DNA of 64,000 bases from an uncultured Candidatus Binatia bacterium (GCA_964618895.1 CAZUDO010000100.1:1044-65043), one strand, 5' to 3'. Positions 1 through 15,221 are shown, counted from the stretch's first letter. Notes: generated by a model from the sequence alone, not told the origin. Translations and numbers: made by a program.

Positions 1-126
1 AGGCCATATCCGGACTCATGTAGGGAGGTATGCTGTGCGTGGATCGGTCAACCATGCGTGACAAGCACTGACTGCTGTCTAGGCGATAATAACTCTTGCA
101 TCGACGGGATCTGTGTATTCTTTTAG
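1..126 (+). CDS. 3' end of a small cysteine-rich (knottin-like) peptide ORF; the start lies upstream of the window
   Basis: Frame 1 is open from nt 1 to TAG at 124-126. Translation is RPYPDSCREVCCAWIGQPCVTSTDCCLGDNNSCIDGICVFF, with 8 Cys in 41 aa. Spacing C-x6-C-x5-CC-x6-C-x4-C matches the inhibitor-cystine-knot framework. The other two frames are closed. GC here is about 50% versus about 70% for the window. Confidence 0.4.
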   Translation, partial: RPYPDSCREVCCAWIGQPCVTSTDCCLGDNNSCIDGICVFF

Positions 127-127
127 T

Positions 128-151
128 CGGGGCGCACGGGAGCCCCGGGAG
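128..151 (+). other. GC-rich hairpin just after the peptide stop codon (CGGGGC-gcacggga-GCCCCG); no T-tract follows
   Basis: 6-bp inverted repeat seen directly in the sequence. Position is consistent with an mRNA 3' end structure. Confidence 0.3.
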
Positions 152-649
152 GAGTCGGCGGCTCGCCGGCCGCCTGGGGCCCCCACCGCGTGCAAGGGTG
201 GAAGGTCTTCCAGGTGCAGCCAGACCGCGTGTTCCAGAGCGGATTCCTCCCCCGGCGGTGTCCGAATTCTCCCAAATCTTGGACAGAGAACCCGTTTTGC
301 CGCGCGCTAACCCTTGAAAATCACGACGGTCGGAAAACGGATTCGGACTTTTTGTCCGCATCCGCACGATTCGGCCACCGACATCTTCGCGGCTCGCACC
401 GTCGCGCATGTCGCCTTCCGTGCATACCAGCGACAAAAGATGACGCCGAAGGCCAGAATATCCAGCTACTTGGATGGGCCGCGGCGATGGAAGGCGACGT
501 TTTGTCGCGATCCTTGGTCAACTGCGACAGCAGCGCCGGGTCGCGCGCCGGCTTCTGACGCGCTGCGGTAGCGGGTGACGGCCCTGTTCGGGGTGCGCTC
601 CGACCGCCGACCGCCCGCGGGCCGCGAGCCGTACGCGACGAACGCGTGC

Positions 650-2284
650 CTACAACCCGTCGCACACGGCGGGGAATGATTCGCCCAGGCCGACGACGGG
701 CAGCACGGAACACGCGCTCCGATAGACCCCAGCCACCAAGCGGGCTGCCCCGGCGGCATGGCGGCCCAGGACACAGCCGATCACCTCGTCCATGGTTGTC
801 GCCGTGCCCGTACACCCGGTCTGGACATGGGACGGCGCAACACCAGTGCACTTGGTCCCGATCCATGCCTCGGCATGGCGCCAGGCGTTCGACACCCGCG
901 ACGTAGGGTTCGTCCGGTCCAGGTCGTCGGTACACGCGGCCGTCGCTGCGGCAATCGGGTTTCCCGCTGCCACGTCGGTGAGCACGCGGTCGAGGCAGCG
1001 AGTGAGCAGCCGATGCGCCCGGTCCGCAAAGCGAAGCCCGCCGGCCGCGAGCGCGGCGTGGCATCGACGGGCGTCCGCTCGGAGCGTCGGGATACAGCCT
1101 GGAAGCGCCGTGTAGACGCATCCCCGTGCCGGATCGCAGGCGTCCTGGGTGCAGGCATCATGGTCGTCGCAGTCGATCGGCGTGCCCATGCAGACACCTT
1201 CCCGGCAGGTATCGCTGACCGTGCAGGCGCTCTCATCGTCACACGGTCCTGGGAGGCAGGCCGGGCCGATGAAGTTGCCGACGGCCCGCGCCCCGGAACC
1301 TAGCGCAATCGTCGTCCATACCCCGCCCGTCTCGCCGTCGATGACCGTAACGCGGTTCTGGGTCTGGCTGATCGCATACACCTTGGATGTGGAACAACGG
1401 TCCCCGCGCGCAGCGTTCGAGACGTAGCCCAACCCACCGGTTGCGTCGGCAGCAACCGTAGCCATGACACGTCCGGCGGGAATGTCCACGATGGATACCG
1501 GGCCGAGCCCAGTGTCTGGCCCGCTCAGATACGCGCGCGTTCCTGAGGGATTCCCCACCGCAGGCCACCAGAATCCAGGGACGCTCACAAATCGGCTCCA
1601 CGTGCTAGTTGCCACGTCAAGTTCACCCAGCGTCACAGAGAACGCTCCTCCGAAGTTTGATCCCATCGTGACGAAGATACTCCCCGATCGTGAGCCGGTA
1701 AGGAAGCCGATCGGTACGATGCTGATGGTCGCAGGCGACAGTCCCGTCACGAGCGTGTCGGTCGCCGTGTCGATCACGTAGATGCCGCTCCCCGCGGACA
1801 CATAGAGCCGAGTAGCGTCAGCGCTCGCCATCATCTCCCAGGGGGTTTGCCCAGAGACTGGGATGTCGGCGGCAACAGCGTAGGTGCGGGTGTCAATGAC
1901 TTGGACGCTGCCGCCATAGCGATGGACAACACCAACATAGAGCTTCGACGTACCGCGCGGCGCCGATAGAACAAACGGCCCACCCTGAACGGGGATGGTG
2001 GCAACCACGGTGTTACTGGCCGCATCGATCACTGAAACCGAGGCCGAGTTGTAATTCCCGATGTACACCGGCGATCCGTCAGGACTGATCGCTACCCCCA
2101 TCGGAGTGACGCCCACGGGCACGTCAGCAACGATCGTGTCCGTGTTCGTGTCGATGACCGAGACGGAGTTGGTGCTGCCGATCGGGACGTAGGCGAACGG
2201 CGCAGCGGTGGCCAGACGCGCGGCCAAGAGAAGGGATCCACAGGCGAGGACAAAACCAGCGCGCATTGTCCAGGTCGTCCTCAT
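650..2284 (-). CDS. Secreted YVTN-type beta-propeller repeat protein with a C-terminal Myxococcus-type cysteine-rich repeat region
   Basis: Signal peptide MRAGFVLACGSLLLAARLATA. Repeated SxVxVIDTxTxTVVATIPVGxxP-like blades (YVTN family). C-terminus CxDDxxCTxDxCxxGxC repeats. Uniform high GC3. Confidence 0.8.
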   Translation of the reverse strand: MRTTWTMRAGFVLACGSLLLAARLATAAPFAYVPIGSTNSVSVIDTNTDTIVADVPVGVTPMGVAISPDGSPVYIGNYNSASVSVIDAASNTVVATIPVQGGPFVLSAPRGTSKLYVGVVHRYGGSVQVIDTRTYAVAADIPVSGQTPWEMMASADATRLYVSAGSGIYVIDTATDTLVTGLSPATISIVPIGFLTGSRSGSIFVTMGSNFGGAFSVTLGELDVATSTWSRFVSVPGFWWPAVGNPSGTRAYLSGPDTGLGPVSIVDIPAGRVMATVAADATGGLGYVSNAARGDRCSTSKVYAISQTQNRVTVIDGETGGVWTTIALGSGARAVGNFIGPACLPGPCDDESACTVSDTCREGVCMGTPIDCDDHDACTQDACDPARGCVYTALPGCIPTLRADARRCHAALAAGGLRFADRAHRLLTRCLDRVLTDVAAGNPIAAATAACTDDLDRTNPTSRVSNAWRHAEAWIGTKCTGVAPSHVQTGCTGTATTMDEVIGCVLGRHAAGAARLVAGVYRSACSVLPVVGLGESFPAVCDGL

Positions 2285-2307: not shown

Positions 2308-3063
2308 TTACGGTACCTCGACGTGGAACGGCGGAACCAGGCCCAACACCGAGAGATCAAACTCGACCCCGACCGCCGTAGACGGGAAGACGGAGCCGAA
2401 GTACGGTGCCGGCTCGCACCTGCTCGGGAACTCGAAGCTCGCCCTCCACGCAAGCGGAGGACGCGAGCTAACAGGCCCCTCAGGTATGTACGCGAACTGA
2501 CGGCAGGGCAGTGGGCCGATGGCGCCGGTACATCCCAATGGTCCCCACGTGACACGGGGACGTTTCACGAGCTGATCCTCCCCCATCGTTGTCACGAAGA
2601 CCGGGCCGGTGCAGTCCGGGGTTTCATACCAGAATCGCGTGTCCCAGGCGGGGTCGTTCGGGGCACGGGGATCAGTTTCCACCACGCCGGCGAAATATCC
2701 TCGTCCGTTAACCGTCATAAGTACGGACGCAGTCCCCAGGCGCCGCAAAATGGTGAATGGCTCAAGATTTCCGCTCAGTCGCACATCAACCACGACGCCA
2801 ACGAAGTATCCGTCGGAGTCCCGTATTATGGCGCCGGGGCCCGTTGCCCCGTCCCGCCCGGGCGGTCCCGCAGACCCCGACTCGCCCTTTGGACCTTGCA
2901 GCCCGAGCGCCACGGGATCGACGGGCGTCTCGTTCGTCTTGCACATTTCGCGCATGCGAATCAGGCCACTGCCGGTTCGGCCGGCACAGAGTACGGCAGA
3001 ACGCGCGGGTACTGCGCTGATCACAAAGACCGCGAACACCATCAACGACAATAGGGCCTTCAT
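2308..3063 (-). CDS. Secreted protein, VLC-ETPVD family paralogue 1, with a short collagen-like stalk
   Basis: Signal peptide ending ARS. Mature N-terminus AVLCAGRTGSGLIRMREMCKTNETPVDPVALGLQGPKGESGSAGPPGRDGATGPG (8 GXY triplets). 6 Cys. C-terminus FDLSVLGLVPPFHVE shared with paralogue 2. Confidence 0.7.
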   Translation of the reverse strand: MKALLSLMVFAVFVISAVPARSAVLCAGRTGSGLIRMREMCKTNETPVDPVALGLQGPKGESGSAGPPGRDGATGPGAIIRDSDGYFVGVVVDVRLSGNLEPFTILRRLGTASVLMTVNGRGYFAGVVETDPRAPNDPAWDTRFWYETPDCTGPVFVTTMGEDQLVKRPRVTWGPLGCTGAIGPLPCRQFAYIPEGPVSSRPPLAWRASFEFPSRCEPAPYFGSVFPSTAVGVEFDLSVLGLVPPFHVEVP

Positions 3064-3091: not shown

Positions 3092-3814
3092 CTACAGCCC
3101 CTCGACGTGGAAGGGCGGCACGCCGAGTGTCGATAGATCGAAGGAGATTGCCGGGGCGGTCATCGGATAGGGTGCGGACTCGGGCGTGCATCTCCTACCG
3201 TCGAGTGACCCGGACGCTCGAAGGGGCCGCGGCGATCCGGGGCCATCGGGAAGCAACGCGAAACGTCGACAGACCACCGGCCCATCGCCGGTGCATCCTC
3301 GGGGGCCCCACTCCACAGCGGGTCGTTGCACGAACCGATCCCCGTCCCCCACAACCAGGTGGGGTAGACCGGTGCAGTCGCTGTCTTCAAACCAGAGGAC
3401 AGCCTCACGCCTGTCGGTCAGATTGGTCTCTGGCTGATCCCACGGGGGTACCCATCCGAAGTAGCCTGTCCGGTCGACCGTCAACAGAACGGGCGTCGGG
3501 CCGAGTGAGCGCAGAATGGTAAATCTGTCGCCGTGCTGAGCCTCCCACGGGTTTACATCGACCACCGCACCGATGACGGCACCTTGGGAATCGCGGACGA
3601 CGACGCCAGGGCCGGGGGCCCCGGGGATTCCCGGATCGCCCTTCGGCCCTTGCAGTCCGAGCGCAACGGGATCGACGGGCGTCTCGTTCGCGCGGCACGT
3701 ATCGCGTACGCGCACCGTCCCCGAGCCCGCTGCCCGCGTGCAAAGCACCGCCGCTTGCACGGGCGCCGCTCCCAACGCGACACCGACAACAACCGCCATG
3801 ATCCGACTGCCCAT
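3092..3814 (-). CDS. Secreted protein, VLC-ETPVD family paralogue 2, with a short collagen-like stalk
   Basis: Signal peptide ending VQA. AVLCTRAAGSGTVRVRDTCRANETPVDPVALGLQGPKGDPGIPGAPGPG. Colinear with paralogue 1 throughout (FTILRxLG, CTG, CRxFA, FDLSTLGVPPFHVE). Confidence 0.7.
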   Translation of the reverse strand: MGSRIMAVVVGVALGAAPVQAAVLCTRAAGSGTVRVRDTCRANETPVDPVALGLQGPKGDPGIPGAPGPGVVVRDSQGAVIGAVVDVNPWEAQHGDRFTILRSLGPTPVLLTVDRTGYFGWVPPWDQPETNLTDRREAVLWFEDSDCTGLPHLVVGDGDRFVQRPAVEWGPRGCTGDGPVVCRRFALLPDGPGSPRPLRASGSLDGRRCTPESAPYPMTAPAISFDLSTLGVPPFHVEGL

Positions 3815-3973
3815 CCCCCTGTGCCCCCCCGGCGCCGTGCGGCAGGTCTTGCGCGCAGCACGGCCCCATTATTGTTCATCGGCGCGGTTCTCGAAGACCT
3901 TGAGGCCACGCGGGAAGTACGCTCGCCAGCGTTCGGGCCGTTGGCCCGGCCCCGGCCTCTTGCGTAGAAACAG

Positions 3974-4837
3974 ATGCGCCCGCCACGGCGGCAACCGGGC
4001 AGGCGCGGAGGATCGAGCATGGCGAAACTACGCCGCGGTAAGCACGGGGCGCAAGCCCGGCGGGGATTCCGCGTCGCCTCCTGGGTGACGGAAGCGCTGA
4101 GCGAACTGGCGAAGACGCTGAACAGCCCATCACCCGCGACGCTCTCAAGCGCGGACGTGGAAGCGATTTGGGTCGGATGGGCGGAGACGCGCTCACGTCT
4201 CAACGCGCTCGCGACCGCAGGCCGGGCGATAGGGCTCGGGAGCCCGCGCCATCGATACGCGATCGATCCCCTGCGCCGCGTTCTGCGCCGGCTTGCCTGG
4301 CGCCCTGACCAGGCGAGATCGGCAACGGGCGCGTTGCCTGGCGTCGGCGTTGTGCTCATGCCGGAGGGAACCATCCGCGTCGGCACAACGGGCCCGAGCG
4401 TGGAGGATTCCGGGCTGTGGGTTGCGGTCGAGATACTCGACTACGCGGTGAAAACGGGTCGTCCGGGAGACGTACTCCGCCGGCTCCATCGTTGCACCAT
4501 GTGCGCCACCTTCTTCTTACGTAACCGCGGCAACGTGCGGCACGAGAAGGCCTTCTGTAGCACGAAGTGCGCCGACGCCTATCACGCTCGGCCGTCCGAG
4601 CGCGACCGGCGGCGGGCGCAGGTACACGACCGAGGCCAACGGCGGACGGCGCGACGTCGGGACGCCGCTCTCGCCTTGGGATTCGACGCGCCGCCGAACC
4701 GCTGCATTGATCCAGCCCTGCGGACCCCCGCCGGACTAAGCGCACGCGTTGCCGCCCTCGTGCGCAAAGGCCTGATCCTCGAGCGGGCCCAATGGATCGC
4801 CTCGCAGGAAGCTGAACGCCTTGAGATACGTCAGTAG
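3974..4837 (+). CDS. Hypothetical protein with a C-terminal four-cysteine zinc-ribbon (CGNR-like) motif
   Basis: 287-aa ORF with motif CTMCATFFLRNRGNVRHEKAFCSTKCADAYHAR. Lies at the probable left border of the integrative element. The coding call is only moderately supported because composition is Arg-rich. Confidence 0.4.
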   Translation: MRPPRRQPGRRGGSSMAKLRRGKHGAQARRGFRVASWVTEALSELAKTLNSPSPATLSSADVEAIWVGWAETRSRLNALATAGRAIGLGSPRHRYAIDPLRRVLRRLAWRPDQARSATGALPGVGVVLMPEGTIRVGTTGPSVEDSGLWVAVEILDYAVKTGRPGDVLRRLHRCTMCATFFLRNRGNVRHEKAFCSTKCADAYHARPSERDRRRAQVHDRGQRRTARRRDAALALGFDAPPNRCIDPALRTPAGLSARVAALVRKGLILERAQWIASQEAERLEIRQ

Positions 4838-4934
4838 ATAGGTACACAACGCACGCGTCGGTGATCGTTCGTTGCGCCACCGACGCGAGCACTTCACCGC
4901 GCGCGTCTCTTCACACCCTGCTACACCGAAGGGC

Positions 4935-5120
4935 ATGACCAGGCTCCTGACGGCAGTCGAGGCGGCTGCGGTGTTGCGCGTGAGCCTTCGGACGGTACGT
5001 CGACTCATCGCGGAACGGGCGGTGCCCGTGGTGCGCGTTGGCCGGCGGACGCTCTTCCGCGGGGACGCGCTCGAGCGTTTCGCTCGGCGGTGCGAGACGG
5101 TTGACCACCATGCACGCTGA
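4935..5120 (+). CDS. AlpA/excisionase-family helix-turn-helix DNA-binding protein
   Basis: MTRLLTAVEAAAVLRVSLRTVRRLIAERAVPVVRVGRRTLFRGDALERFARR matches the short phage AlpA/Xis HTH pattern. Stop overlaps the primase start by 11 nt. Confidence 0.65.
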   Translation: MTRLLTAVEAAAVLRVSLRTVRRLIAERAVPVVRVGRRTLFRGDALERFARRCETVDHHAR

Positions 5121-7884
5121 CGCGCGAGCGGCTCGCTCTGCCGTCCACGCCCCGGGGCAAGGCCGCGCCGCCCGGTGCCCGGCGGACCGCGAGGAGGTTC
5201 GCCGTACGCTGGCTCTGCTCGTCGAGCCGGGAAGCGTCGTCGAGCTGCGCATTCCCAAGACCGCCCGCGCTGGCACCGTCTCAGGGTACTTCGCCGACCT
5301 CGAGAAGCTCACGGCGGCGGCGGCGGAGTGGAGCGGGCGAGCACCGGGGATCTACGTGACCCTGAACCCGGTGAACGCGGACCTCCTCGCCCGTGCCGCA
5401 AACCATGTGCGCGAGCGCGCGGAAGACACCACGAGCGATCAGCACATCGGCGTCCGCCGATGGCTCCCGTTCGACTTGGACGCGGTGCGGGTGGGTGGCA
5501 TCTCCTCGACGGATGACGAGCACGCCGCCGCGCTCGAGCGGTCACGCCAGGTGGTCGCGTGGCTGATCGCCCGCGGCGTCGAGCCGGCCTCCATCGTCCT
5601 CGCCGACAGTGGGAACGGCGGGCACGTGCTCGTGCGGATCGACTTGCCGAACTGCGACCAAGCCCGCCAGCTCGTCGAGCGCTGCCTTGCCGCCGCCGCC
5701 TTCGCGCTCGACGATGAAGGGCTGAAGGTCGATCAGAAGGTCGCCAACGCGGCGCGCATCTGGAAGCTCTACGGCACGCTCGCCGCGAAGGGCGACGACA
5801 TGGCGAACCGCCCCCACCGGCTTGCCCGCCTGCTCGATGTGCCCGAAACGATCGTGCCAACCCGCCGGGAGGTGCTCGAGGCGATCGCCGCGCAGGCGCC
5901 AGCCGAGCCCCCCCGCATGGCCGCGGGCCGCGAGCCGCGTACTGGCACCTTCGACCTCACCGCGTGGGTCGCGGCGCATGCCCTGCCGGTCATGCGCTGC
6001 GGCCCGTGGAAAGACGGGACCCGGTGGATCCTGAACCCCTGTCCGTTCAACTCCGAGCACACGAACGCCGCCGCGTACATCGTGCAAATGGGGCATGGGG
6101 CGATCGCGGCGGGCTGTCACCACAGCTCATGTACATGGGGCTGGGCTGAGCTTCGGGAACACTATGACCCCGAGGACGAAAGCCCCCCCGGTGCGAGCGT
6201 GGATCCGGCGATCCCGACCAGCGACGCGATGCGCGGGGCTGGCGGCGCATCCCATGCCGCCCGCCTCGTCGAGCTGACTGCCGGGGCCGAGTTGTTCCAC
6301 TCCCTTGACATGGAGGCGTTCGCGACGATTGTCGTCGATGATCACGCTGAGACCTGGCCCTTGCGCTCGCGGAACTTTCGGCTCTGGCTGCAGCGAGAAT
6401 TTCACCGGACGACCCGGTCGATTCCGAGCACGCAGGCGACTCAGGATGCGTTGGGCATCCTGACCGGCCGCGCGCTCTTCGAGGGCGAGACACGCGCCGT
6501 GTTCGTGCGCGTCGCTGGCGGCCCGGATGACATCTATCTCGACTTGGGGGACGCCAGTTGGACAGCGGTCCACGTCACGGCCGCAGGATGGGAGCTGGTC
6601 AGGAACCCGCCCGTCAAGTTCCGCCGCGCTCGAGGGATGCTGCCGCTCCCCATGCCCGTGCCGGGCGGTTCGCTCGACGCACTCGCCCGGTACGCGAATG
6701 TCTGGGACGAAACGAGCTGGCGGCTGCTGGTGGCCTGGCTGATCGCCGCCTGCCGCCCTCGGGGACCCTACCCCGTGCTCATGATCCACGGGGACGCGGG
6801 TGCAGCCAAGAGTACGCTCGCGCGGCTGCTCCGCGCGCTGATCGACCCGAGCAGCGTGCCGCTACGTGCTGAGCCGCGCGACGTGCGCGACGTGATGATC
6901 ACCGCCACCAACGCCTGGGTGATTGCGTACGACAACCTGGACCACCTGCGGCCGTGGCTTTCGAATGCGCTCTGCCGGCTCGCGACCGGCGGGGGCTTCA
7001 GCACGCGCGAGCTGTACACCGACGCGGAAGAGGTGCTCTTCGAGGCGACCCGTCCCGTCATCATCAACGGGATCGAGGAGCTGGCCACGCGGAGCGACCT
7101 GCTGGACAGAGGACTACTCCTCGACCTGCGAGAGATACCCGACGAGCGGCGGCAGCCCGAGGAAGGGTTCTGGGCTGCGTTCGAGGATGAACGTCCGCGG
7201 CTCCTTGGTGCGCTGCTGGACGCGGTGAGCACCGCGCTACGCACCCTGCCCTCGGTCCGACTAGCTCGCCTGCCCCGCCTTGCGGACTTCGCCATCTGGA
7301 CCACTGCGGCAGAAGGTGGGCTCGGGTGGGCACCGGGCAGCTTCCTCCGCGTTTACGACGGGAACCGCGGTGCGGCACACGATATCACCCTGGACGCCTC
7401 GCCGGTTGCCGGCGTCGTGCGGGAGCTACTCGAGCAGCACTCGACCTGGTGCGGGACCGCGACCAACCTACTGAGCACGCTCGCCACCTTGGCGGGCGAG
7501 AGCGTGACGAAGCAACGCGACTGGCCGCGCAACGGCAAGGGGCTCGCTGGGGTGCTGCGCCGTCTCGCGTCCACCCTCCGGGCGGTCGGCATCGGCGTTG
7601 ACTTCGAGCGCGAGCCCGGCGGCCAGCGCCGCCGCCTGATTCGCCTCGAGAAGATGATGGGTCCCTACCGTCCCGATCGTCCCGAGACGGACGAATCCGT
7701 AGGCCCGGTGCGGGACGCACGGCGGGACGCAAACGGGACGCACGGGGACGCAGACCGGGACGGAGGCGCGGGCGAGCGGACCGGACATCCCTCCCCAGAA
7801 TCAAGGGGTGGGACGCACCGGGACGGTCGGGACGCAGAGGAACCCCACTCTTCGTCCCCGTACGACGTCGAGGTGTTTGAGTGA
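5110..7884 (+). CDS. Phage/plasmid primase-helicase: N-terminal AEP primase-polymerase domain, zinc-binding CPF..H motif, C-terminal SF3 (D5/P4-type) helicase
   Basis: LPFDLD (DxD) and SGNGGHVLV (sGxGxH) Prim-Pol motifs. NPCPFNSEHTNAAAYIV zinc motif. Walker A GDAGAAKST and Walker B VIAYDNLD. ATG at 5110. Confidence 0.8.
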   Translation: MHADARAARSAVHAPGQGRAARCPADREEVRRTLALLVEPGSVVELRIPKTARAGTVSGYFADLEKLTAAAAEWSGRAPGIYVTLNPVNADLLARAANHVRERAEDTTSDQHIGVRRWLPFDLDAVRVGGISSTDDEHAAALERSRQVVAWLIARGVEPASIVLADSGNGGHVLVRIDLPNCDQARQLVERCLAAAAFALDDEGLKVDQKVANAARIWKLYGTLAAKGDDMANRPHRLARLLDVPETIVPTRREVLEAIAAQAPAEPPRMAAGREPRTGTFDLTAWVAAHALPVMRCGPWKDGTRWILNPCPFNSEHTNAAAYIVQMGHGAIAAGCHHSSCTWGWAELREHYDPEDESPPGASVDPAIPTSDAMRGAGGASHAARLVELTAGAELFHSLDMEAFATIVVDDHAETWPLRSRNFRLWLQREFHRTTRSIPSTQATQDALGILTGRALFEGETRAVFVRVAGGPDDIYLDLGDASWTAVHVTAAGWELVRNPPVKFRRARGMLPLPMPVPGGSLDALARYANVWDETSWRLLVAWLIAACRPRGPYPVLMIHGDAGAAKSTLARLLRALIDPSSVPLRAEPRDVRDVMITATNAWVIAYDNLDHLRPWLSNALCRLATGGGFSTRELYTDAEEVLFEATRPVIINGIEELATRSDLLDRGLLLDLREIPDERRQPEEGFWAAFEDERPRLLGALLDAVSTALRTLPSVRLARLPRLADFAIWTTAAEGGLGWAPGSFLRVYDGNRGAAHDITLDASPVAGVVRELLEQHSTWCGTATNLLSTLATLAGESVTKQRDWPRNGKGLAGVLRRLASTLRAVGIGVDFEREPGGQRRRLIRLEKMMGPYRPDRPETDESVGPVRDARRDANGTHGDADRDGGAGERTGHPSPESRGGTHRDGRDAEEPHSSSPYDVEVFE

Positions 7885-8267
7885 CGCCCATAGCGCTCCT
7901 CACCGATTTGATCACCCGCGGGGCGACCCTCATGGCGGACGGCAATGCCATCCAGGTTCGGGCCCCGCGCGGGGTGCTCACCGACGCCGACCGGGTTGCG
8001 CTGGTCGCCCACAAGGCGGCGCTCCTTGGCCTTCTGGCAGACCTGGGCACCCTCGAGGCCGATCGCACCGCCGAACGCCTCCGTGCCCTCTGGAGCAATC
8101 TCTCCGACACCGAGCGCCAGCGGCTCCACGCCGAGGCGGTCGCAGGCGACACCTTGGCCGGCATCATCCTCGCCGCCATCACCGTCGATTCGCAGGTCGA
8201 TCGTCACGCAACCGGTGCCGTGCCTGAGCCACGCCCCAAGCGTGCCGACGGAACGGAGGAGGCGTGA
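7881..8267 (+). CDS. Hypothetical protein (element cargo), translationally coupled to the primase (GTGA overlap)
   Basis: GTG at 7881 overlaps the primase TGA. 128 aa, MTPIALLTDLITRGATLMADGNAIQVRAPRGVLTDADRVALVAHKAALLGLL... No recognisable domain. Confidence 0.4.
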   Translation: MTPIALLTDLITRGATLMADGNAIQVRAPRGVLTDADRVALVAHKAALLGLLADLGTLEADRTAERLRALWSNLSDTERQRLHAEAVAGDTLAGIILAAITVDSQVDRHATGAVPEPRPKRADGTEEA

Positions 8268-8554
8268 TAGCCCACCCGGAACGCGCAGTCAGCCGACCGC
8301 AGTGCGGAACGCCCACGCGGACCGCAGGGGGCTCAGGCGTGGTTCTGGAACGCGGCCGTGCCTCGTCGTTCAGGCCATGCGGCGCGTTCGGCGAGGCCGG
8401 CCTGCCCAATCAGGGGGTCCACCAGCGCGCCGACATGCCCACCTGCCCCGGGGAAGACGTCCTCAGCCATACACCCGTGCACGCGAGAGGCTACTATGGA
8501 TACCGTGGGCCAGCGCGGCCTCGTCGTCCCCTGGCTCACCATGGCGGCCGACGT

Positions 8555-8799
8555 TGATGAGCCGTCGGAGCACCCCTTTGCCCGGCGGCCTAGAGGAGCG
8601 CCTTCTCGATGTTCATGAGACGGCCGCAATGCTCCGGCTCAAGCCAGCCACGCTGTATCAGTGGGCGTATGAACGCCGCATCGCCGTGGTGAAGCCCTCC
8701 GGACTACGCGGACCCCTCCGCTTCCGCCTGAGCACGCTGCTCAAGCTGATCGAGGAGTGGGAACGGCCCGCGATCCGTCCGATACCTGACCGGACTTGA
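8555..8799 (+). CDS. Excisionase-like helix-turn-helix protein
   Basis: LLDVHETAAMLRLKPATLYQWAYERRIAVVKPSGLRGPLRFRLSTLLKLIEEWE matches the AlpA/Xis-type HTH pattern. Start codon choice (ATG 8555) is uncertain. Confidence 0.55.
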
Positions 8800-8834
8800 C
8801 GAAGAGATAATGGCTGCGTTACTAGCCTGGAACA

Positions 8835-9062
8835 GTGGACAGCCTGAAGCGCATCCGGAAGGCGAAGGGGTTGAGCTTGACCGAGGTTGCGAGCCGCACC
8901 GGACTCTTCCGCGAGGCAATCGCGCGGCTCGAGCGATCGGACACCGACCCGAGGGCCTCGAGCTTGCTGCTCCTCGCCCGAGCCTACCGGGTCCCGGTCT
9001 GCGAATTGTTCGATGAGGGAGGACATGACCACGGACGGCACCGAGCGCGACGACGGTCGTAA
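8835..9062 (+). CDS. XRE-family helix-turn-helix transcriptional regulator
   Basis: MDSLKRIRKAKGLSLTEVASRTGLFREAIARLERSDTDPRASSLLLLARAYRVPVCELF is a classic Cro/CI-type HTH. Sits immediately upstream of the integrase. Confidence 0.6.
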   Translation: MDSLKRIRKAKGLSLTEVASRTGLFREAIARLERSDTDPRASSLLLLARAYRVPVCELFDEGGHDHGRHRARRRS

Positions 9063-10242
9063 GCGCGGCGACCGCGGCATCTTCGAGCGTCCGAAGGGCT
9101 CGGGTGTCTGGTACGCGCGCTACCGTGACGAGCACGGTCGTTTGCACCGGGAGAAGGTCGGTCCGAAAGGGCTCGCGCTAAAGGTCTACCAGAAGCGGCG
9201 GACAGAGATCACCGAGCGCCGATTCTTCCCGGAACGCATCCGCCGGCCGGATATCCTGGTCAGCGTCGCCATCGACGACTACCTGGTCCGACTCAAGGGA
9301 AGGTCGCGCAGCTATCGCAACTGGGATCGCTGCGGCAAGGTCTGGAAGGCGGCTCTTGGCAACAAGACACTCCGCGAAGTGCTGCCCGGCGACATCGAAC
9401 GCTTTCGCGCACGGCGACGAGGTGAGGGCCTCGCACCGGCGAGCGTGAACCGGGAGCTGAGCTTCCTCCGAAGCGTCTTCAACGCCGCCATCGAGGATGA
9501 GAAGATCGAGAAGAATCCGGTCAGGTCGAAGTTCCTCTCCAAGGAGGCGAACCAGCACGTCCGTTATCTGACCCAGGAGGAGGAGGTCAGTCTCAGGGCA
9601 GCTATCGGCGAGGCTGAGTGGCCCAAGGTCGCGGTCGCCCTTCTTACCGGGCTTCGCCAAGGGAATCAGTTCCATCTCGCCTGGGCCGATGTTCACTTCG
9701 ATACCGGCATCATCCGTGCGCGCCAGTCGAAATCAGGCGAGGACTATTTCATCCCCATGAACGAGGAGCTGCGCGCTATCCTCCGCGCCCTGCCCTCGCG
9801 GCTACGTAGCGCCTGGGTCTTCCCGAGCGAAACCGGCGAGACACCCCTCGACGCGAAAAACCACCTGCATCGCGCCTTTCTTCCGGCGCTGCGTCGGGCC
9901 GGTGTACGTGACTTCCGCTGGCATGATCTGCGACACACGTTCGCTTCGAGGCTCGTGATGGCGGGGGTGGACATTCGCACGGTGCAGGAACTGCTAGGCC
10001 ACAAGACGCTCACGATGACAATGCGCTATGCGCACCTGTCGCCGGCTCACAAGCTCGAGGCCGTACAGCGCCTTTCGCTCGCGCCAAGTAGCACCACAGG
10101 TAGCACCGACGACGCATCCGTGAAGATCGCCGTAGAGGGCGGCGCCGAAGTACGCAACCTGCCACCCGAATTGAGTGAGCCGTGCCGGGATCGAACCGGC
10201 GACCCGCTGCTTAAAAGGCAGCTGCTCTACCAACTGAGCTAA
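9025..10242 (+). CDS. Tyrosine-type site-specific integrase; ORF has no stop until inside the tRNA-Lys gene
   Basis: C-terminal catalytic region HDLRHTFASRLVMAGVDIRTVQELLGHKTLTMTMRYAHL (R..HxxR..Y). N-terminal phage-integrase SAM-like region. 3' tail overlaps tRNA-Lys. Confidence 0.85.
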   Translation: MTTDGTERDDGRKRGDRGIFERPKGSGVWYARYRDEHGRLHREKVGPKGLALKVYQKRRTEITERRFFPERIRRPDILVSVAIDDYLVRLKGRSRSYRNWDRCGKVWKAALGNKTLREVLPGDIERFRARRRGEGLAPASVNRELSFLRSVFNAAIEDEKIEKNPVRSKFLSKEANQHVRYLTQEEEVSLRAAIGEAEWPKVAVALLTGLRQGNQFHLAWADVHFDTGIIRARQSKSGEDYFIPMNEELRAILRALPSRLRSAWVFPSETGETPLDAKNHLHRAFLPALRRAGVRDFRWHDLRHTFASRLVMAGVDIRTVQELLGHKTLTMTMRYAHLSPAHKLEAVQRLSLAPSSTTGSTDDASVKIAVEGGAEVRNLPPELSEPCRDRTGDPLLKRQLLYQLS

Positions 10243-10248
10243 CGGCTC
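10176..10248 (-). tRNA. tRNA-Lys (anticodon UUU)
   Basis: Manual fold: acceptor GAGCCGT/ACGGCTC, D arm GCTC-AGTTGGTA-GAGC, anticodon arm GCTGC-CTTTTAA-GCAGC, T arm GCCGG-TTCGATC-CCGGC, discriminator A. 73 nt; no encoded CCA. Confidence 0.9.
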
Positions 10249-10479
10249 GAAGGTGTAAAGACGCGGAGTTACACGTCCGCCGGGTGGGGCGCAAGGACCG
10301 CTGTACAGCGGCTGTGCAGGAACAATGGCAAGGGACTACCGTACTCCGCCCTGCCCCGGCCTATCGTGTCCTTTCGGCAGAGCTGCGTAGACGCGGGCGT
10401 TCAACCAGCGCGGGCGCGAGCCCGGCTACACATTCCTGCTCATGGCGTTGGGCCGGTCCTCGGTGGCGGCTTGACCGTT

Positions 10480-10757
10480 GTGCTCTTGCCGCTTGCCGCT
10501 TCTCGGCGGGCACGTCGTGCTTCCTGACGATGTACACGCTCGGCGGCTCCTTCGGCCCGCTGGTGACCGGGACACTGAGCGACACGCTGGCCCTGCGCGC
10601 GGCGACCGCGGCCGGTTCCTGCCTCGTGACCGAACAGTTCAAGGCCGTCGGGTTACAGCAGGCGATGCTCGTGATCCCGGCGCTGGCCGTCGGACTTGCG
10701 ATCGTGCTCTGGGCCGGCGCGCGAACGTTCCTGAACGACGCCCTCCGCCGCGCCTGA
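10480..10757 (+). pseudogene. C-terminal remnant of an MFS-type transporter (about 77 codons with coding signature; no plausible N-terminus)
   Basis: FLTMYTLGGSFGPLVTGTLSDTLALRAATAAGSCLVTEQFKAVGLQQAMLVIPALAVGLAIVLWAGARTF shows transmembrane composition and high GC3. Upstream in-frame sequence is Arg/Cys-rich noise. Confidence 0.4.
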
Positions 10758-10891
10758 CGAACGCCGAGCATCCCGTCGGCGGCCAGCGGATTGAGTCCGC
10801 AGTCGGGCGGTGGTACCTCTGACCCGCCGGCACACGTGGTGCCGGGTTTCCCGCGCCCGCCGCGAGCTGGTCGGTCGAGTGGAGGTCGAGG

Positions 10892-11524
10892 ATGACGAGG
10901 AAGATGTTCGTGGGAGTCGCGCTCACCAGCGCCACGGTGTGGATGGCGGCGGCGGCCGTCGATGCGACGGTGCTATGCCAGAAGAAGTCGGGCGCCGTGT
11001 TCGCCAGAGACACCGCGTGCAAAAAGAAGGAGACCCCGCTCGACGCGACGTCGCTGCTCGGCACGTTGCCCACGCGATTGACCGCGCTCGAGTCGAGCGT
11101 GATCACGCTTCAGTCGGACGTGAGCTCGCTGGATGACATCCGCGAAGTGCAATCGCTCACCGGCCTGGCCGCGCTGACCTCGTTCACGCATGACGCGGAT
11201 CTTGCCTCGCTGAGCTTCACCAATACCCATAGCGGCCACGCCAGAATCAGCGTGACGATTTCGGCATCCGCAACGTGTGCCGGGGGCTTGCCGTTCGGCG
11301 TGTTCTACCTCACGCTTGACGGCGTCGACATTGCCGACAGCGGCGGCGCGATACCTGACACCGGAACGCTCTATCCGCTTCGACTGGTCGGCACGACGGC
11401 CGCCGTAGTCGATCCAGGTACGCACACGGTGCAGGTTGCCCTCGACTGCCTCTCGGGCGGCAGCGGGTACGCGTACGCACCGTACATCGACGGCGACGTC
11501 ACGATCATCCGCGTCACGTCGTAG
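10892..11524 (+). CDS. Secreted protein, VLC-ETPxD family paralogue 3 (coiled-coil stalk instead of collagen-like stalk)
   Basis: Signal peptide ending VDA. Mature N-terminus TVLCQKKSGAVFARDTACKKKETPLDA shares the motif with the 2308 and 3092 genes. Heptad-like LESSVITLQSDVSSLDD. Beta-rich C-terminal domain. Confidence 0.65.
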   Translation: MTRKMFVGVALTSATVWMAAAAVDATVLCQKKSGAVFARDTACKKKETPLDATSLLGTLPTRLTALESSVITLQSDVSSLDDIREVQSLTGLAALTSFTHDADLASLSFTNTHSGHARISVTISASATCAGGLPFGVFYLTLDGVDIADSGGAIPDTGTLYPLRLVGTTAAVVDPGTHTVQVALDCLSGGSGYAYAPYIDGDVTIIRVTS

Positions 11525-11635: not shown

Positions 11636-12031
11636 CTACGGCGTCATTTCCTCGAGCAAGCTGCTGGAGACCACCTCCCGCGTCCCGCTCGCATCCAGCT
11701 CCTTGACCAGCTTCTGATACTCGGCGTCGCTCCGGACCTTCGTGAACCCCTTCGCGAACGCTTCCATGCTGGGGTACTCGATCCCAACGAAGATCAGGCC
11801 GGAGTCCGCGCCGGCCAGCGTCGCACGCCAGACGCGGATCGTGCCACCGGCTTCGATGCGCTTCGAAATAGCGTTCAGCTGCTTCACCTTCTGCAGGTAG
11901 GCCTCCTGATCGCCCTTCAGCTTCACGGTGAGGACGCTGAGAACGGACCGGGGCTCCGCCGCCGCGGCGGGCGCCGCGGCCCACAGGACGAACCCCATTA
12001 CGATGACGAGCTGCTTCCAGGACGATTTCAT
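11636..12031 (-). CDS. Small secreted protein of unknown function
   Basis: MKSSWKQLVIVMGFVLWAAAPAAAAEP signal peptide. Balanced Lys-rich composition. GGAGG 8 nt upstream of ATG. TTGACA -35-like element upstream. Confidence 0.65.
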   Translation of the reverse strand: MKSSWKQLVIVMGFVLWAAAPAAAAEPRSVLSVLTVKLKGDQEAYLQKVKQLNAISKRIEAGGTIRVWRATLAGADSGLIFVGIEYPSMEAFAKGFTKVRSDAEYQKLVKELDASGTREVVSSSLLEEMTP

Positions 12032-12120
12032 CCGAACAACCTCCCCTGCTGGTCCTGGCACCTGGCTCCATGCCCGTGCCGATGGGAGCTGAGTACGTCG
12101 CAGGCATATCCGCTGTCAAG
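12032..12120 (-). promoter_or_regulatory. Putative sigma-70-type promoter and RBS of the small secreted protein gene
   Basis: On the minus strand: TTGACA (plus 12114-12119) followed about 18 nt later by TACTCA. GGAGG (plus 12040-12044) lies 8 nt before ATG. Confidence 0.35.
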
Positions 12121-12320
12121 AAAGCGCACGACGTTCGGGCCGAACCTCCGCGTCACCACCGCCTCGAGCGAATCCGGGCCCTCCGGCGCGATTGCCCAGA
12201 TCGACGACTACATCACCGCGGTCGCCGACGGCACGGGCTGGCACCTCGCCTGGACCGACAAGCGTCCCGTCGATCTCGGCATCTACTACGGCTTCGTCGC
12301 GAAGTAGAGGGTCACGCCCA

Positions 12321-13472
12321 TCATGGCGGTGGCGGTGTGTCGCGCTCATCGTCGAGACCCGTGCGCCGTTGGCCGCGCGTCCAGAAGTAGTTCCACGCGC
12401 CGTTGGCGTTCAGCGGGATCCCGGGCTCGAACGTCGCCGGCGTCCCGCCCGCATCACGATGCAGGCTCCAGCGCTCGTAGAATTTCGTCGTCGGGCAGTC
12501 CCAGCACGGGAGCCGTCGTGCGTCGGACGACCCCTGGCGGCGACGGAACAGGCCGCGGGCCGTGCGGTAGCGAGGATGGTTCCACGCCTCCTGGAAGCTC
12601 CGCGCGGAGACGACGGGTGCGAAGTCGTCGAATCCCTGAAATACTCCGCGACAGGGCGCCAGCATGCCGTCGACCGTGAGCACCGGCTGCCCCCACAGGA
12701 ACGGGCAGGGGTGAGGCGTGTGCGACAGGAACCACGGGGGCCAGCCATCCTGCCGTTCCCACGCCGGGTCGGGCACGGCACCACGCAACGCGAGCAGCCG
12801 CATGTCGAGCTCCGTCGCCAGCCGCTGCATGGCGTCGCCCTCGTCCGTGTTGCAGGGGAACTGGAGGAACTGCAGGGTCAGCCGCGGCAGGTCGGTCGCG
12901 AGCCGTGCCTTGGCGGCCGCCACGAGGCGGCAGTTCTCGATGACCTTCGCCAGGTCCCCGCCGACGCGGTAGCGCTCGTAGACGGCCTGCGTGGCGCCGT
13001 CGATGGAGACGAAGAGGTCCGTGAGGCCGCTCGCCACCAGCCGTTCGGCGTCATCGCTGGTGAACGGGATACTCAGATGGGTGTTCACGCGGGTGGCGAT
13101 GCCACGCGTGCTGGCGGCCGCGATGATCGCCGGCAGGTCGGGATGGAGCATCGCCTCGCCCCAATTGAAGACCTCGATCAGCAGCAGGTAGTCGCCGATC
13201 TCGTCGAGCAGGGTGAGGTAGGGCTCGAGCGGCATCATCCCCGGCCGCCGGCCGAAGCGTCCCGCCCCGGTGTGGCAATGCGGGCAGCGCAGGTTGCACA
13301 CGTTGGTCGGCTCGATGACGAGGCGCGTAGGCCGAGAGCGGAGGATCGGGCGCAGCCGTCGCAGCTCGTAGCGGTTCAGGTAGAGGTTCGCGAGCCGCCG
13401 CCAGGTGAGGCGGTAGCCGCTGATGTCATCGGGGAGTCGCAGAAAGTCGCGCAGCCCGGCCACCCCCGACAT
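12321..13472 (-). CDS. Radical SAM/SPASM-domain protein (paralogue A)
   Basis: CNLRCPHC (Cx3Cx2C). FNWGEAMLHP (GGE-like). C-terminal Cys-rich SPASM-like region CPFLWGQPVLTVDGMLAPC...CWDCP. Start ATG overlaps the stop of paralogue B (TGATG). Confidence 0.85.
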   Translation of the reverse strand: MSGVAGLRDFLRLPDDISGYRLTWRRLANLYLNRYELRRLRPILRSRPTRLVIEPTNVCNLRCPHCHTGAGRFGRRPGMMPLEPYLTLLDEIGDYLLLIEVFNWGEAMLHPDLPAIIAAASTRGIATRVNTHLSIPFTSDDAERLVASGLTDLFVSIDGATQAVYERYRVGGDLAKVIENCRLVAAAKARLATDLPRLTLQFLQFPCNTDEGDAMQRLATELDMRLLALRGAVPDPAWERQDGWPPWFLSHTPHPCPFLWGQPVLTVDGMLAPCRGVFQGFDDFAPVVSARSFQEAWNHPRYRTARGLFRRRQGSSDARRLPCWDCPTTKFYERWSLHRDAGGTPATFEPGIPLNANGAWNYFWTRGQRRTGLDDERDTPPPP

Positions 13473-14671
13473 CAGCTCGCCGTGCGGGTGCCGGAGGCGG
13501 CCGTCCGGCCGGTGGTCCGGGCCCGGGTCCAGAAGTAGTTCCAGATGCCGTTCAGACTGTAGCCGACGTCAAAGGTCTCTCGCGTGCCGCCGGCCGCGTG
13601 ATGGTGCTTCCACCGTTCCCACATGTGCGTGTTCGGGCAGTCGAAGCACATCTGTGCCCGCTCCTCGGCCGTGCCGTCGCGCCGATGGTAGAAACGGCGG
13701 GCGCTCCGGAAGCGCGGGCCGTTCCAGATGTCGCGGAAGCGCACGCTCGCGAGCTGACCCGGATGGACGGCCAGGCGCCCCATGTCGTCGGCGGCGTCGA
13801 ACCCGCCCCGGCAGGCGAGCACGCCCCCGTCGGTCGACACCACGGCCGTCCCCCACAGGAAGATGCACGGGAGCGGCACGGGAACGGCACAGTAGTCGAA
13901 CCGGCCCGCCGCGTCCCAGTCGGGTCCGGGCACGACCCCCTTGAAGAAACGCAGCTCCGCCCCCAGCTCCCGCGCCATCGCCCGCATGCCGTCGACATCG
14001 TCGACGTTGTGCGGAAAGACGTGAAACTCAAGATAAAGCCGCGGCCCCGTCCGCCCCAGACGGCGTTTCGCGTCGGCGACCAGCCGGCAGTTGTGCTGTA
14101 CCCGTTCCAGGTTCCCGCGGACGCGGTACTGTTCGTAGCTTTTCTGATCCGCCCCGTCGACCGAGACCGTCAGCTGGGTGAGCCCCCCGGTGACCAGTCG
14201 CTCGGCCCGGACACGATCGAACGGGGCCATGAAGCTCGTGTTGATGAAGGTCGCAATGCCCCGCGCACTCGCCGCTTCGATCATCGGATAGACGTGCGGG
14301 TTCAGGAGGGGTTCGCCCCACTGGAACATTTCGATCTCGAACAGATGGTCGCCGAGCTCGTCCAGGAGCCGCGCGTAGAGATCGAGCGTCATCAGGGCCC
14401 GCGGACGGCCGATCTCGCCGGCGCCGGTGAGACAATACGGACACCGCAGGGTGCAGGCATTGGCGGGTTCGATCACGAGCCGGGTGGGATACGACCGCAG
14501 CGTCGTCCGCCCGAGCAGATACTCGAGGTGGTTGAGGTAGAGGTTCAGCCGCCGCTTGCGCGTCACCCGGTACCCTCCGAGTGGGGGCAGCCCGAACAGC
14601 TGCTGCGGCGTGAGGGCGATCGGATGTACGGTGCGCCACCAGCGCGCGAGCCGTCGGCGTAGGCGCGACAT
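13472..14671 (-). CDS. Radical SAM/SPASM-domain protein (paralogue B)
   Basis: CTLRCPYC, FQWGEPLLNP, CIFLWGTAVVSTDGGVLAC...CFDCP. About 55% identical to paralogue A, including the C-terminal WNYFWTR. Start MSRLRRRL chosen at 14671 by alignment with A. Confidence 0.85.
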   Translation of the reverse strand: MSRLRRRLARWWRTVHPIALTPQQLFGLPPLGGYRVTRKRRLNLYLNHLEYLLGRTTLRSYPTRLVIEPANACTLRCPYCLTGAGEIGRPRALMTLDLYARLLDELGDHLFEIEMFQWGEPLLNPHVYPMIEAASARGIATFINTSFMAPFDRVRAERLVTGGLTQLTVSVDGADQKSYEQYRVRGNLERVQHNCRLVADAKRRLGRTGPRLYLEFHVFPHNVDDVDGMRAMARELGAELRFFKGVVPGPDWDAAGRFDYCAVPVPLPCIFLWGTAVVSTDGGVLACRGGFDAADDMGRLAVHPGQLASVRFRDIWNGPRFRSARRFYHRRDGTAEERAQMCFDCPNTHMWERWKHHHAAGGTRETFDVGYSLNGIWNYFWTRARTTGRTAASGTRTAS

Positions 14672-15014
14672 CGACGCTCCCCTCCGTGCCTGCTGGTCTA
14701 CACCCCTGGGTCCGTGCACGGCAAGCGAGCGGGCGTCGATGTGCAGGGGGGGGTTCTCGAGTTGACCCGCGCGGCGCAGGGCGTCACGATGGTCGACATC
14801 GGACACCCCGACGACTCCTTGGCAAACACCCCAAGGAATCGGATAGAGGAACTGGAGCCGGTCCATAGGGGACCGATCCGAACGGTCCCCCGATGTCCGG
14901 GGGAGCCCCGATGCGGGACGGCTTCCCGCGAAGGCGAGTGGTTGAAAATTGCGGATGACGCAGCACACACGCAGCGTCGCACTCCGGCAATTCAAAACCC
15001 AGTAGGAGTAGGCG

Positions 15015-15221
15015 ATGCGTACGACAGGAACGGTCAAGTGGTTCAACGACGAAAAGGGCTTCGGCTTCATCACGCGTGACGACGGCGAGAAGGACGTCTT
15101 CTGCCATCACAGCGCGATCAAGTCCGACGGCCATCGGAGCCTTCGTGAAGGCGCCAAGGTCGAGTTCGACGTGGTCCAGGGCGCGAAGGGCCCGGCCGCG
15201 GAGAACGTCGTGCCCCTCTAG
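15015..15221 (+). CDS. cspA: Cold-shock protein (CspA family)
   Basis: [35 protein letters not shown] with RNP motifs KGFGFI and VFCHH. 68 aa. Confidence 0.9.

Follow-up and report, generated by a model that had tools for sequence, protein, structure and literature searches.

In genomic islands and prophages that integrate into tRNA genes, a tyrosine integrase crosses over in the anticodon loop, and the tRNA gene is regenerated on integration. Such elements reportedly fall into sublocation classes, a scheme that is said to go back to Williams in 2002. Smaller and more varied systems have also been described. The phage-inducible chromosomal minimalist islands (PICMI) of Vibrionaceae are about 6 kb long and include elements that carry int, alpA and prim only (PMC10803314), and the Tycheposons and cryptic tRNA-island elements of Prochlorococcus form islands that accrete and leave behind remnants and partial tRNAs (bioRxiv 10.1101/2020.12.28.424599). 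Here, we analyzed a 64,000-nt stretch of DNA from an uncultured Candidatus Binatia bacterium (GCA_964618895.1 CAZUDO010000100.1:1044-65043; hereafter the window, with positions counted from its first letter), in which a set of integration and replication genes adjoins a tRNA-Lys(UUU) gene. The region 4019-10248 is a bona fide integration and replication module of a tRNA-Lys-targeting element, and it very probably represents the tRNA-proximal part of a genomic island that derives from a self-replicating integrative element targeting tRNA-Lys(UUU). An earlier sequence-only reading had proposed a mobile integrative element at this place, and this core proposal is upheld by a tRNA-Lys-specific integrase, by a regulatory and replication module and by relatives located at tRNA genes, one of which (contig L254) has att repeats.

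The tRNA-Lys(UUU) gene (10175-10248, minus strand; ARAGORN; Rfam RF00005, 72 bits) is complete and has a perfect acceptor stem. A tyrosine integrase of 405 amino acids (aa) is encoded on the plus strand at 9025-10242, in an open reading frame (ORF) that is open from 8887 and has its likely start at 9025, and it matches Phage_integrase (E 2e-29) and PHROG_1 (E 3e-72). As had been read from the sequence, the integrase gene abuts and reads into the 3' end of the tRNA gene: its stop codon lies inside tRNA-Lys, and its final ~22 codons are the antisense strand of the tRNA. Could the integrase be the pseudogene of a chromosomal xerC/D-type recombinase, an objection that the same reading had raised? 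An alignment to XerA (4a8e) shows the full catalytic set of R, K, HxxR, H and Y, and the XerC/XerD model scores fall far below the cut-off (84 versus 335 bits); thus, the integrase is neither a pseudogene nor a chromosomal Xer protein. The window therefore contains an intact phage-type tyrosine integrase adjacent to a tRNA gene, as is expected of a tRNA-integrating element. Homologues of the integrase number 4501; identity reaches 60-67% among the top ones, which also conserve the tail pattern ..RTxDPLLKRQxLYxLS. One homologue (P0289) is a fusion of an HTH_3 (XRE) domain with an integrase.

Where does this integrase recombine? The closest integrase relative found (66% identity) is encoded on L254, a 582-kb contig that has the same right-end module of HTH_17, XRE and integrase genes and differs from the window in the rest of its element. 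The L254 integrase ORF also reads antisense through tRNA-Lys(ttt). A perfect 46-bp direct repeat at L254 positions 11160-11205 and 2127-2172 bounds a 9.0-kb element, and this repeat covers the tRNA gene from anticodon-loop position 32 through the 3' end and continues for 3 nt more. A further integrase ORF, on contig L097 (48% identity), ends in a half tRNA-Lys that aligns to window positions 10176-10219. Furthermore, the C-terminal tails of the 120 best integrase homologues (P0212-P0331) are antisense-tRNA peptides. Of 31 Lys-type tails, 24 run on as ...DPLLK(R/S)Q(L/M)L(Y/C)xLS, which corresponds to a full tRNA beside the integrase, and the remaining 7 diverge straight after DPLLK(R/S), that is, in the anticodon loop; judging from these peptides, the diverging tails would be expected of copies that lie next to a partial tRNA or attP. 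Given the L254 repeat, the L097 half-tRNA and the divergence point of the tails, the att core (attL) of the window is predicted at 10172-10217. The same logic makes the att core placeable for a clade of about 4500 homologues, in which the antisense-tRNA tail marks the core and the crossover falls at the anticodon loop.

Another 41 homologues have RTxDL... tails, mostly RTxDLGIMRPSL or RTxDLLITNQLLYRLS, which presumably derive from other tRNAs. L097 is a 2.3-kb metagenome contig (integrase at 977-2147) whose half tRNA-Lys lacks the 5' half. Beside its integrase lie a truncated VOC/glyoxalase gene and a radical-SAM gene that is 45% identical to that of the window, and this context may be of the attP type, a tandem arrangement or a conserved hotspot. 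The region upstream of the L097 half-tRNA has no homology to the left end of the window.

These features suggest how the element would operate. The integration module consists of an AlpA-type HTH_17 protein, an XRE regulator whose gene overlaps the integrase gene, and the tyrosine integrase, a member of a large clade with attP inside the 3' end of the integrase gene. In this integrase clade, attP imitates the tRNA sequence that starts at the anticodon loop and stops shortly beyond the 3' terminus. Integration would recombine the 44-46-bp core with the chromosomal tRNA gene, regenerating an intact tRNA beside the integrase (attL), and should leave a half-tRNA copy (attR) at the far end. After excision, the circle would be replicated by a replication module in which an AEP primase and an SF3/D5-like helicase form a single protein, accompanied by another HTH_17 protein, a pair of coupled small ORFs and probably a 272-aa zinc-ribbon protein (p272).

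The replicase at the center of this module is a 927-aa protein (5101-7884, plus strand) that has no match in Pfam, PHROGs, NCBIfam or PDB sequences. It has 559 homologues and retains all residues that are invariant in the family. The earlier description of the protein as a Prim-Pol plus SF3 helicase is supported at the level of the fold by AlphaFold models, which match AEP and SF3/D5-like proteins, and by the family alignment. Residues ~28-358 are modeled as an AEP (Prim-Pol type) domain that contains a Cys/His zinc motif (CPxNxEHTN...GCHHxxC), and residues ~385-855 as an SF3/D5-like helicase with the Walker A sequence GDAGAAKST. The full-length AlphaFold2 model (pLDDT 86) matches monkeypox virus E5/vaccinia D5, African swine fever virus PrimPol, the NrS-1 helicase region and the SaPI5 primase-helicase, and phage helicase/primase models in BFVD at E 4e-43. 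The N-terminal domain model (pLDDT 94) matches AEP-superfamily proteins only, including the S-2L PrimPol AEP (6zp9; E 5.6e-5, TM 0.69), archaeal PriS, Prim-PolC, the LigD polymerase, CAPP and human PrimPol. The motifs D125/D127 (FDLD), SGNGGH (170-175), K570 and D611 are invariant or nearly so in the family alignment.

The N-terminal AEP domain (window 5173-6180) behaves as an exchangeable unit. It remains 50-59% identical even where the C-terminal halves of the homologues differ, and it is swapped among at least six helicase or ATPase types, with C-terminal halves that include AAA_25, DUF3987, DUF927, D5_N/P4-primase, zf-CHC2 and DUF3631. The domain occurs in 476 IMG/VR stretches. Although it folds well and is widespread among viral contigs and integrative elements, this AEP primase domain has no model in Pfam, PHROGs or NCBIfam. 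The helicase half (residues ~380-850) is also found as a stand-alone hypothetical protein (35-43% identity) on small plasmids of 12-20 kb (NC_016637.1, LR743506.1 and NC_010374.1) from Methanothrix and Methylobacterium.

The module genes from 4019 to 10242 all lie on the plus strand and run toward the integrase that faces tRNA-Lys. The sequence-only reading had named the gene families correctly and scrambled their order, placing the XRE gene at the far end rather than next to the integrase, and it had omitted the p272 ORF. This ORF (4019-4837, plus strand) encodes a protein that carries an FCS/CGNR-like zinc ribbon in its C-terminal part, together with a basic tail, and that gives weak zf-FCS, VATC and HNH PHROG matches and no family match at E<0.01. 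Proteins of 267-363 aa with a C..FF..R..(F/Y)C(S/T) motif like that of p272 adjoin the primase in three related loci (L249, L251 and L088), and their pairwise similarity to p272 is weak (only E 0.008). p272 is a putative DNA-binding accessory protein of the replication module. An HTH_17/excisionase-family DNA-binding protein follows at 4935-5120 (plus strand; PF12728, E 2e-12; TIGR01764 excisionase, E 4e-11; phrog_66). The stop codon of its gene overlaps the primase start, and a 64-aa HTH_17 protein likewise directly precedes the primase in L088 and L251.

From the primase through the second HTH_17 gene, consecutive genes overlap by 1-4 nt. The primase gene is coupled through a 4-nt GTGA overlap to an ORF for a 128-aa protein (7881-8267, plus strand; gene call in a Logan contig) with a TubC_N-type docking/dimerization domain (PF18563, E 5e-10), and a second 4-nt overlap couples this ORF to a 97-aa ORF (p97; gene call at 8264-8557, plus strand), which is coupled to both of its neighbors and has no family match in Pfam, PHROGs, NCBIfam or PADLOC. 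The 80-aa AlpA-type HTH_17 protein (8557-8799, plus strand; PF12728, E 2e-7) is 65% identical to the HTH_17 protein at the equivalent position in the att-flanked L254 element and is likely to be the recombination directionality factor (RDF) that partners the integrase. The gene for the 75-aa XRE/Cro-type regulator (8835-9062, plus strand; HTH_3, E 7e-12) shares its last 38 nt with the start of the integrase gene. In L254, too, an XRE gene overlaps the integrase gene, and the two XRE proteins are 53% identical. PADLOC found no defense system, and scans of 3600-10900 for promoters, terminators and inverted repeats gave nothing above background.

Relatives of the replicase are found in a similar setting. 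Full-length homologues (47-53% identity) adjoin tyrosine integrases that abut tRNA genes, namely tRNA-Val (L005/L006, L251 and L088) and tRNA-Met (L249, where the integrase ends 7 nt away). The integrases beside these homologues are just 23-30% identical to that of the window, which indicates that replication and integration modules have been combined in a mosaic manner. No att repeats were present within the DNA available for L005, L006, L249, L251, L087 or L088. In L088 (6082-8574), tRNA-Val has integrase genes on both sides, one of which converges on the tRNA 3' end and stops 7 nt away, while the stop codon of the other overlaps the tRNA 5' end; L251 shares the arrangement at the tRNA-Val 5' side. 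A 15.8-kb contig (JGI 3300047160) combines a gene for a replicase homologue (P0007, 50% identity) with genes for a NikA-like protein, AlpA, HNH proteins and a major capsid protein. Both of its ends carry an integrase fragment, so that the contig may be circular, and it is a satellite- or mini-phage-like relative of the replication module.

Does the element itself live as a phage satellite of the PICI, P4 or PICMI type, induced by a helper, equipped with its own primase-helicase and packaged in helper capsids? The core of integrase, AlpA-type HTH and primase fits the PICMI definition in function, the helicase half structurally matches SaPI5 Pri-Rep, the primase domain is common in viral contigs, and the primase homologue just described shares its contig with a major capsid gene and terminal integrase fragments. 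However, searches of the module revealed no genes for a capsid, terminase (terS), cpm/ppi or psu/sid/delta and none that serve packaging or interference in other ways, single-protein searches of IMG/VR with the integrase and with the replicase returned no close relative, and the same helicase resides on plasmids, so that a plasmid-like replicative island is equally possible. We therefore regard a satellite lifestyle as unlikely, and the P4- or PICI-like label of the sequence-only reading does not hold beyond analogy. A broader proposal, which we also consider rather improbable, is that the locus belongs to an unrecognized family of minimal replicative islands that lack a capsid, may be satellites and reside in high-GC soil bacteria that have not been cultured, a family built on the widespread unannotated AEP domain with its at least six helicase types and on the integrase clade that ends inside its own tRNA-derived attP. 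If this were true, the coupled ORFs (the TubC_N-like ORF, p97 and p272) would mediate interaction with a helper or host.

Several observations weigh against the assignment of the module to an integrated tRNA-Lys island. The 44-46-nt half-tRNA repeat (10172-10217) has no copy from -930 to 10100 or elsewhere in the window. The tRNA with ±60-75 nt was searched by word-7 blastn and Smith-Waterman alignment against the window and a 931-bp leftward extension from L001, an independent Logan contig that is 100% identical to the window (negative positions lie in this extension). The best score of 16 was no better than the shuffled background (null 12.7±1.5, maximum 18), and no decayed half-tRNA remnant was detectable in this DNA. 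The failure of the sequence-only reading to find att repeats by eye is thus borne out by blastn, Smith-Waterman and the extension search; an attR repeat is present in L254 and absent from the window. For the window copy, neither an att repeat nor an excised circle or an empty site came to light. L001 is unbroken and unbranched across 3815-4018 and shows no sign of population heterogeneity, so that at the left junction that had been proposed, its sample gives no signal of an empty site or a circle. Furthermore, p272, the TubC_N ORF and p97 have no detectable homologues in related elements (none at related loci for the TubC_N ORF), and their membership in the element therefore rests on strand, coupling and position. 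The low GC content at third codon positions (GC3) of the genes on the left could be a gene-family trait rather than an island mark, given that a look-alike cluster (L253) has similar values. In addition, a truncated MFS gene 220 bp from the tRNA shows that other rearrangements took place here, and a simple integration model may be incomplete.

An empty-site search by way of the flanking radical-SAM gene, in genome and metagenome contigs, found none. The radical-SAM relatives (69-78% identity) lie on short contigs with other neighbors. The sequence-only reading had stated that the lack of an att repeat, together with an identical gene order in all relatives and no empty-site variants, would speak against it; the repeat is indeed lacking, and as to gene order, the close relatives that were available share no synteny with the window. 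The half-tRNA pattern, used as a DNA query, had no close relative in IMG/VR.

Two short matches were considered as att candidates and rejected. A 9-bp direct match, GAAGTACGC (3914-3922 and 10147-10155), is at chance level (we estimate that ~2.6 would be expected) and does not fall within the att core that L254 defines, and a 17-nt near-match at 45925-45941 is in inverted orientation, lies within a coding region and has no extension. Two Logan contigs of SRR9952630 that are both 100% identical to the window, L001 (ending at 10205) and L252 (starting at 10202), overlap by 4 nt in the tRNA. With k=31, this break implies that ~10176-10231 is shared with another sequence in the sample, which could be another tRNA-Lys gene or an att site. 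An alternative allele is a less likely cause than tRNA 31-mers shared with other genomes because L001 is unbranched at the left junction.

Where, then, does the element end on the left? The candidate junction is the gap at 3815-4018 between the start of an operon of VLC genes and the first element-strand ORF, and it contains no att repeat or tRNA remnant. The sequence-only reading had placed the left boundary at 3850, which cannot be demonstrated, and had described a discrete element of ~6.3 kb (3.85-10.2 kb) with little cargo that split an older cluster of VLC and radical-SAM genes and, to fit the data, must later have lost its attR. The minus strand to the left of the gap encodes two collagen-like VLC paralogues (2308-3063 and 3092-3814), whose relationship to each other was read correctly (47% mutual identity, E 4e-54), and a YVTN propeller/Cys-rich protein (650-2308). 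The VLC leader consists of a signal peptide followed by VLC...C...ETP(V/L)D. Its N-terminal motif occurs just three times in the 64 kb and on both sides of the element, the third time in a gene at 10892-11524. This distribution favors a discrete element, as do the eight contiguous, element-type genes on one strand that end at the 204-bp gap and the existence of ~6-kb PICMI elements with int, alpA and prim alone.

However, the claim of a third VLC paralogue shrinks to a shared N-terminal motif of ~40 residues (E 5e-7), and elsewhere this leader is fused to collagen repeats, FGE-sulfatase, Lcl_C, Collar and other domains. No homologue of VLC, p210 or p141 lies near any radical-SAM relative, so the proposed functional cluster is not conserved. 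The left genes have a GC3 as low as that of the element and below that of 27 of the 29 genes called to the right of the tRNA, the half-tRNA is absent from 3815-4018, and after removal of the element, the tRNA and the MFS remnant would still part the supposed cluster. Insertion into an older functional cluster is thus not supported, in view of the composition of the left genes, the leader-only kinship of the third gene, the unconserved radical-SAM association and the intervening sequence. A discrete small element of this kind is conceivable, and we hold it to be somewhat doubtful.

The composition of the region suggests another arrangement. GC3 is 0.73 in a Cys-rich protein gene seen through L001 (-764..126), 0.75 in the YVTN gene, 0.72-0.73 in the two VLC genes, 0.76 in p272, 0.76-0.78 in the integrase and 0.84 in the primase, and the median over all 36 called genes is 0.88. 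To the right of the tRNA, 27 of the 29 called genes have GC3 values of 0.82-0.96; one of the other two, at 0.76, is the ORF with the MFS remnant, and the second is at 0.82. All genes on the tRNA 3' side are thus low in GC3, and the break falls at the tRNA. L253, from the same sample and the only locus to which VLC homologues led, carries a propeller gene, a TSP3 protein gene and four tandem VLC genes with GC3 of 0.69-0.73, and it contains no mobility genes in its 6 kb and no tRNA.

These values are consistent with a single island of more than 11 kb, in which the integration and replication module is tRNA-proximal, the genes for the secreted VLC, YVTN and Cys-rich proteins form the distal cargo, and attR would have to be sought past the point where the contig ends on the left. 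Such an island needs no loss of attR, agrees with the uniformly low GC3 from -764 to about 10250 and with mobility genes that all appear intact, and has a parallel in the att-bounded L254 element, which carries a 965-aa secreted protein as distal cargo beside attR. Nevertheless, the VLC and YVTN genes lie on the opposite strand, the L253 cluster is free of mobility genes, a gene with a VLC-type leader is located outside the island across the tRNA, and attR is not seen for the larger island either. We hold this extended island, too, to be somewhat doubtful, at the same level as the discrete element. Since attR is absent over at least 11 kb, it is about equally likely that the island exceeds 11 kb, its low-GC3 genes being either distal cargo or a layer of greater age, and that a module of ~6.3 kb, or a composite island, has lost attR by deletion and is locked in place. 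The tRNA-proximal module is common to both scenarios. What looks like a clean, small element can thus be no more than the part in view of a tRNA island that is larger or has decayed, and caution is needed not to take neighboring secreted-protein genes as an ancestral cluster when their composition marks them as foreign too.

On the tRNA 5' side, ~220 bp from the tRNA-Lys end, lies the 3' remnant of an MFS_1 transporter gene (10470-10757, plus strand). It consists of the last 87-94 codons of a ~440-aa gene and is 61% identical to residues 346-432 of P0333, a 439-aa protein with an MFS_1 match at E 8e-51; the rest of the gene is missing from both the window and the L001 extension. The remnant is a second rearrangement scar. 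Its position, coinciding with the GC3 break, could mean that a larger foreign block that included tRNA-Lys itself either interrupted the MFS gene or took the place of its 5' part and that the integrase module is nested inside this block. However, a plain deletion on the tRNA 5' side would account for the remnant just as well, the missing 5' portion of the gene is not found, and the integrase/tRNA arrangement is a canonical attL as in L254. We consider a foreign block of this kind very unlikely.

Beyond the remnant, a pair of radical-SAM/SPASM genes (383 and 533 aa; 11636-15073) lies beside genes for a 141-aa secreted protein with a weak DUF6854 match and a 210-aa secreted protein, and this region may serve the modification of peptides or proteins. 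A Candidatus Binatia contig carries the closest radical-SAM fragment (74% identity), and the host is probably a high-GC soil bacterium.

How does the tRNA-Lys module compare with known systems? Like classical tRNA-integrating islands and prophages, it places its integrase beside an intact tRNA, and its predicted att core spans the tRNA half between anticodon loop and 3' end, as L254 shows directly for its own. Unlike in those elements, the integrase ORF runs through the att site and the tRNA, and the window copy has no distal repeat. The module shares with PICMI a size of ~6 kb, an integrase, an AlpA-type HTH protein (PF12728 is accepted by the PICMI model), a primase and a few ORFs of unknown function, and it likewise has a small gene that overlaps int and no capsid-remodeling genes. 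The PICMI core of int, alpA (PF05930/PF12728) and primase has its counterpart in the integrase, the two HTH_17 proteins and the primase-helicase, which all fall within 6.3 kb. However, the PICMI primase is of the DUF3987/DUF5906 type, whereas the replicase of the window is an AEP-SF3 protein without a Pfam match, including PF13148 and PF19263; PICMI insert downstream of fis with 17-bp repeats, whereas the element of the window targets tRNA-Lys and shows no repeat; and PICMI hosts are Vibrionaceae, whereas the host of the window is of a different lineage with no known helper phage. Tycheposons also use a tRNA-targeting tyrosine recombinase with an optional primase or helicase next to the integrase, and they exist in cargo-bearing and PICI-like variants. 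Their recombinase is lineage-specific and their integrase faces inward, whereas the integrase of the window points outward, toward the tRNA, and the locus lacks a partial tRNA.

Among phage satellites and viral replication proteins, the likeness is confined to parts. SaPI/PICI and P4 satellites similarly combine an integrase, small HTH regulators or an excisionase and a primase-helicase (SaPI5 Pri-Rep 7ola, TMt 0.57). Unlike these satellites, the module has no packaging or interference module (terS, ppi and cpm; psu, sid, delta and eps) and no divergent stl/str switch. Pfam, PHROGs and NCBIfam revealed no PICI/SaPI packaging or capsid-redirection genes, and all module genes are co-directional; Pfam and PHROGs likewise gave no family match for a P4-like psu, sid, delta, eps or alpha-type primase, and the replicase is free of the Pfam domains D5_N and P4 primase C. 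The same three databases identified no relaxase, oriT, FtsK-like or type IV secretion system genes, as would be carried by integrative mobilizable or conjugative elements (IME, AICE or ICE), in any ORF from 3815 to 10250. The replicase shares its two-domain AEP-SF3 architecture with D5/E5- and NrS-1-type viral primase-helicases at a sequence identity of ~10%, and it differs from them in the zinc motif of its own in an N-terminal domain that lies outside Pfam. The comparison with PICI, P4 and PICMI satellites is thus reasonable as a functional analogy, and the tRNA-Lys module is best filed as a further case of the already known class of tRNA-integrating, self-replicating islands.

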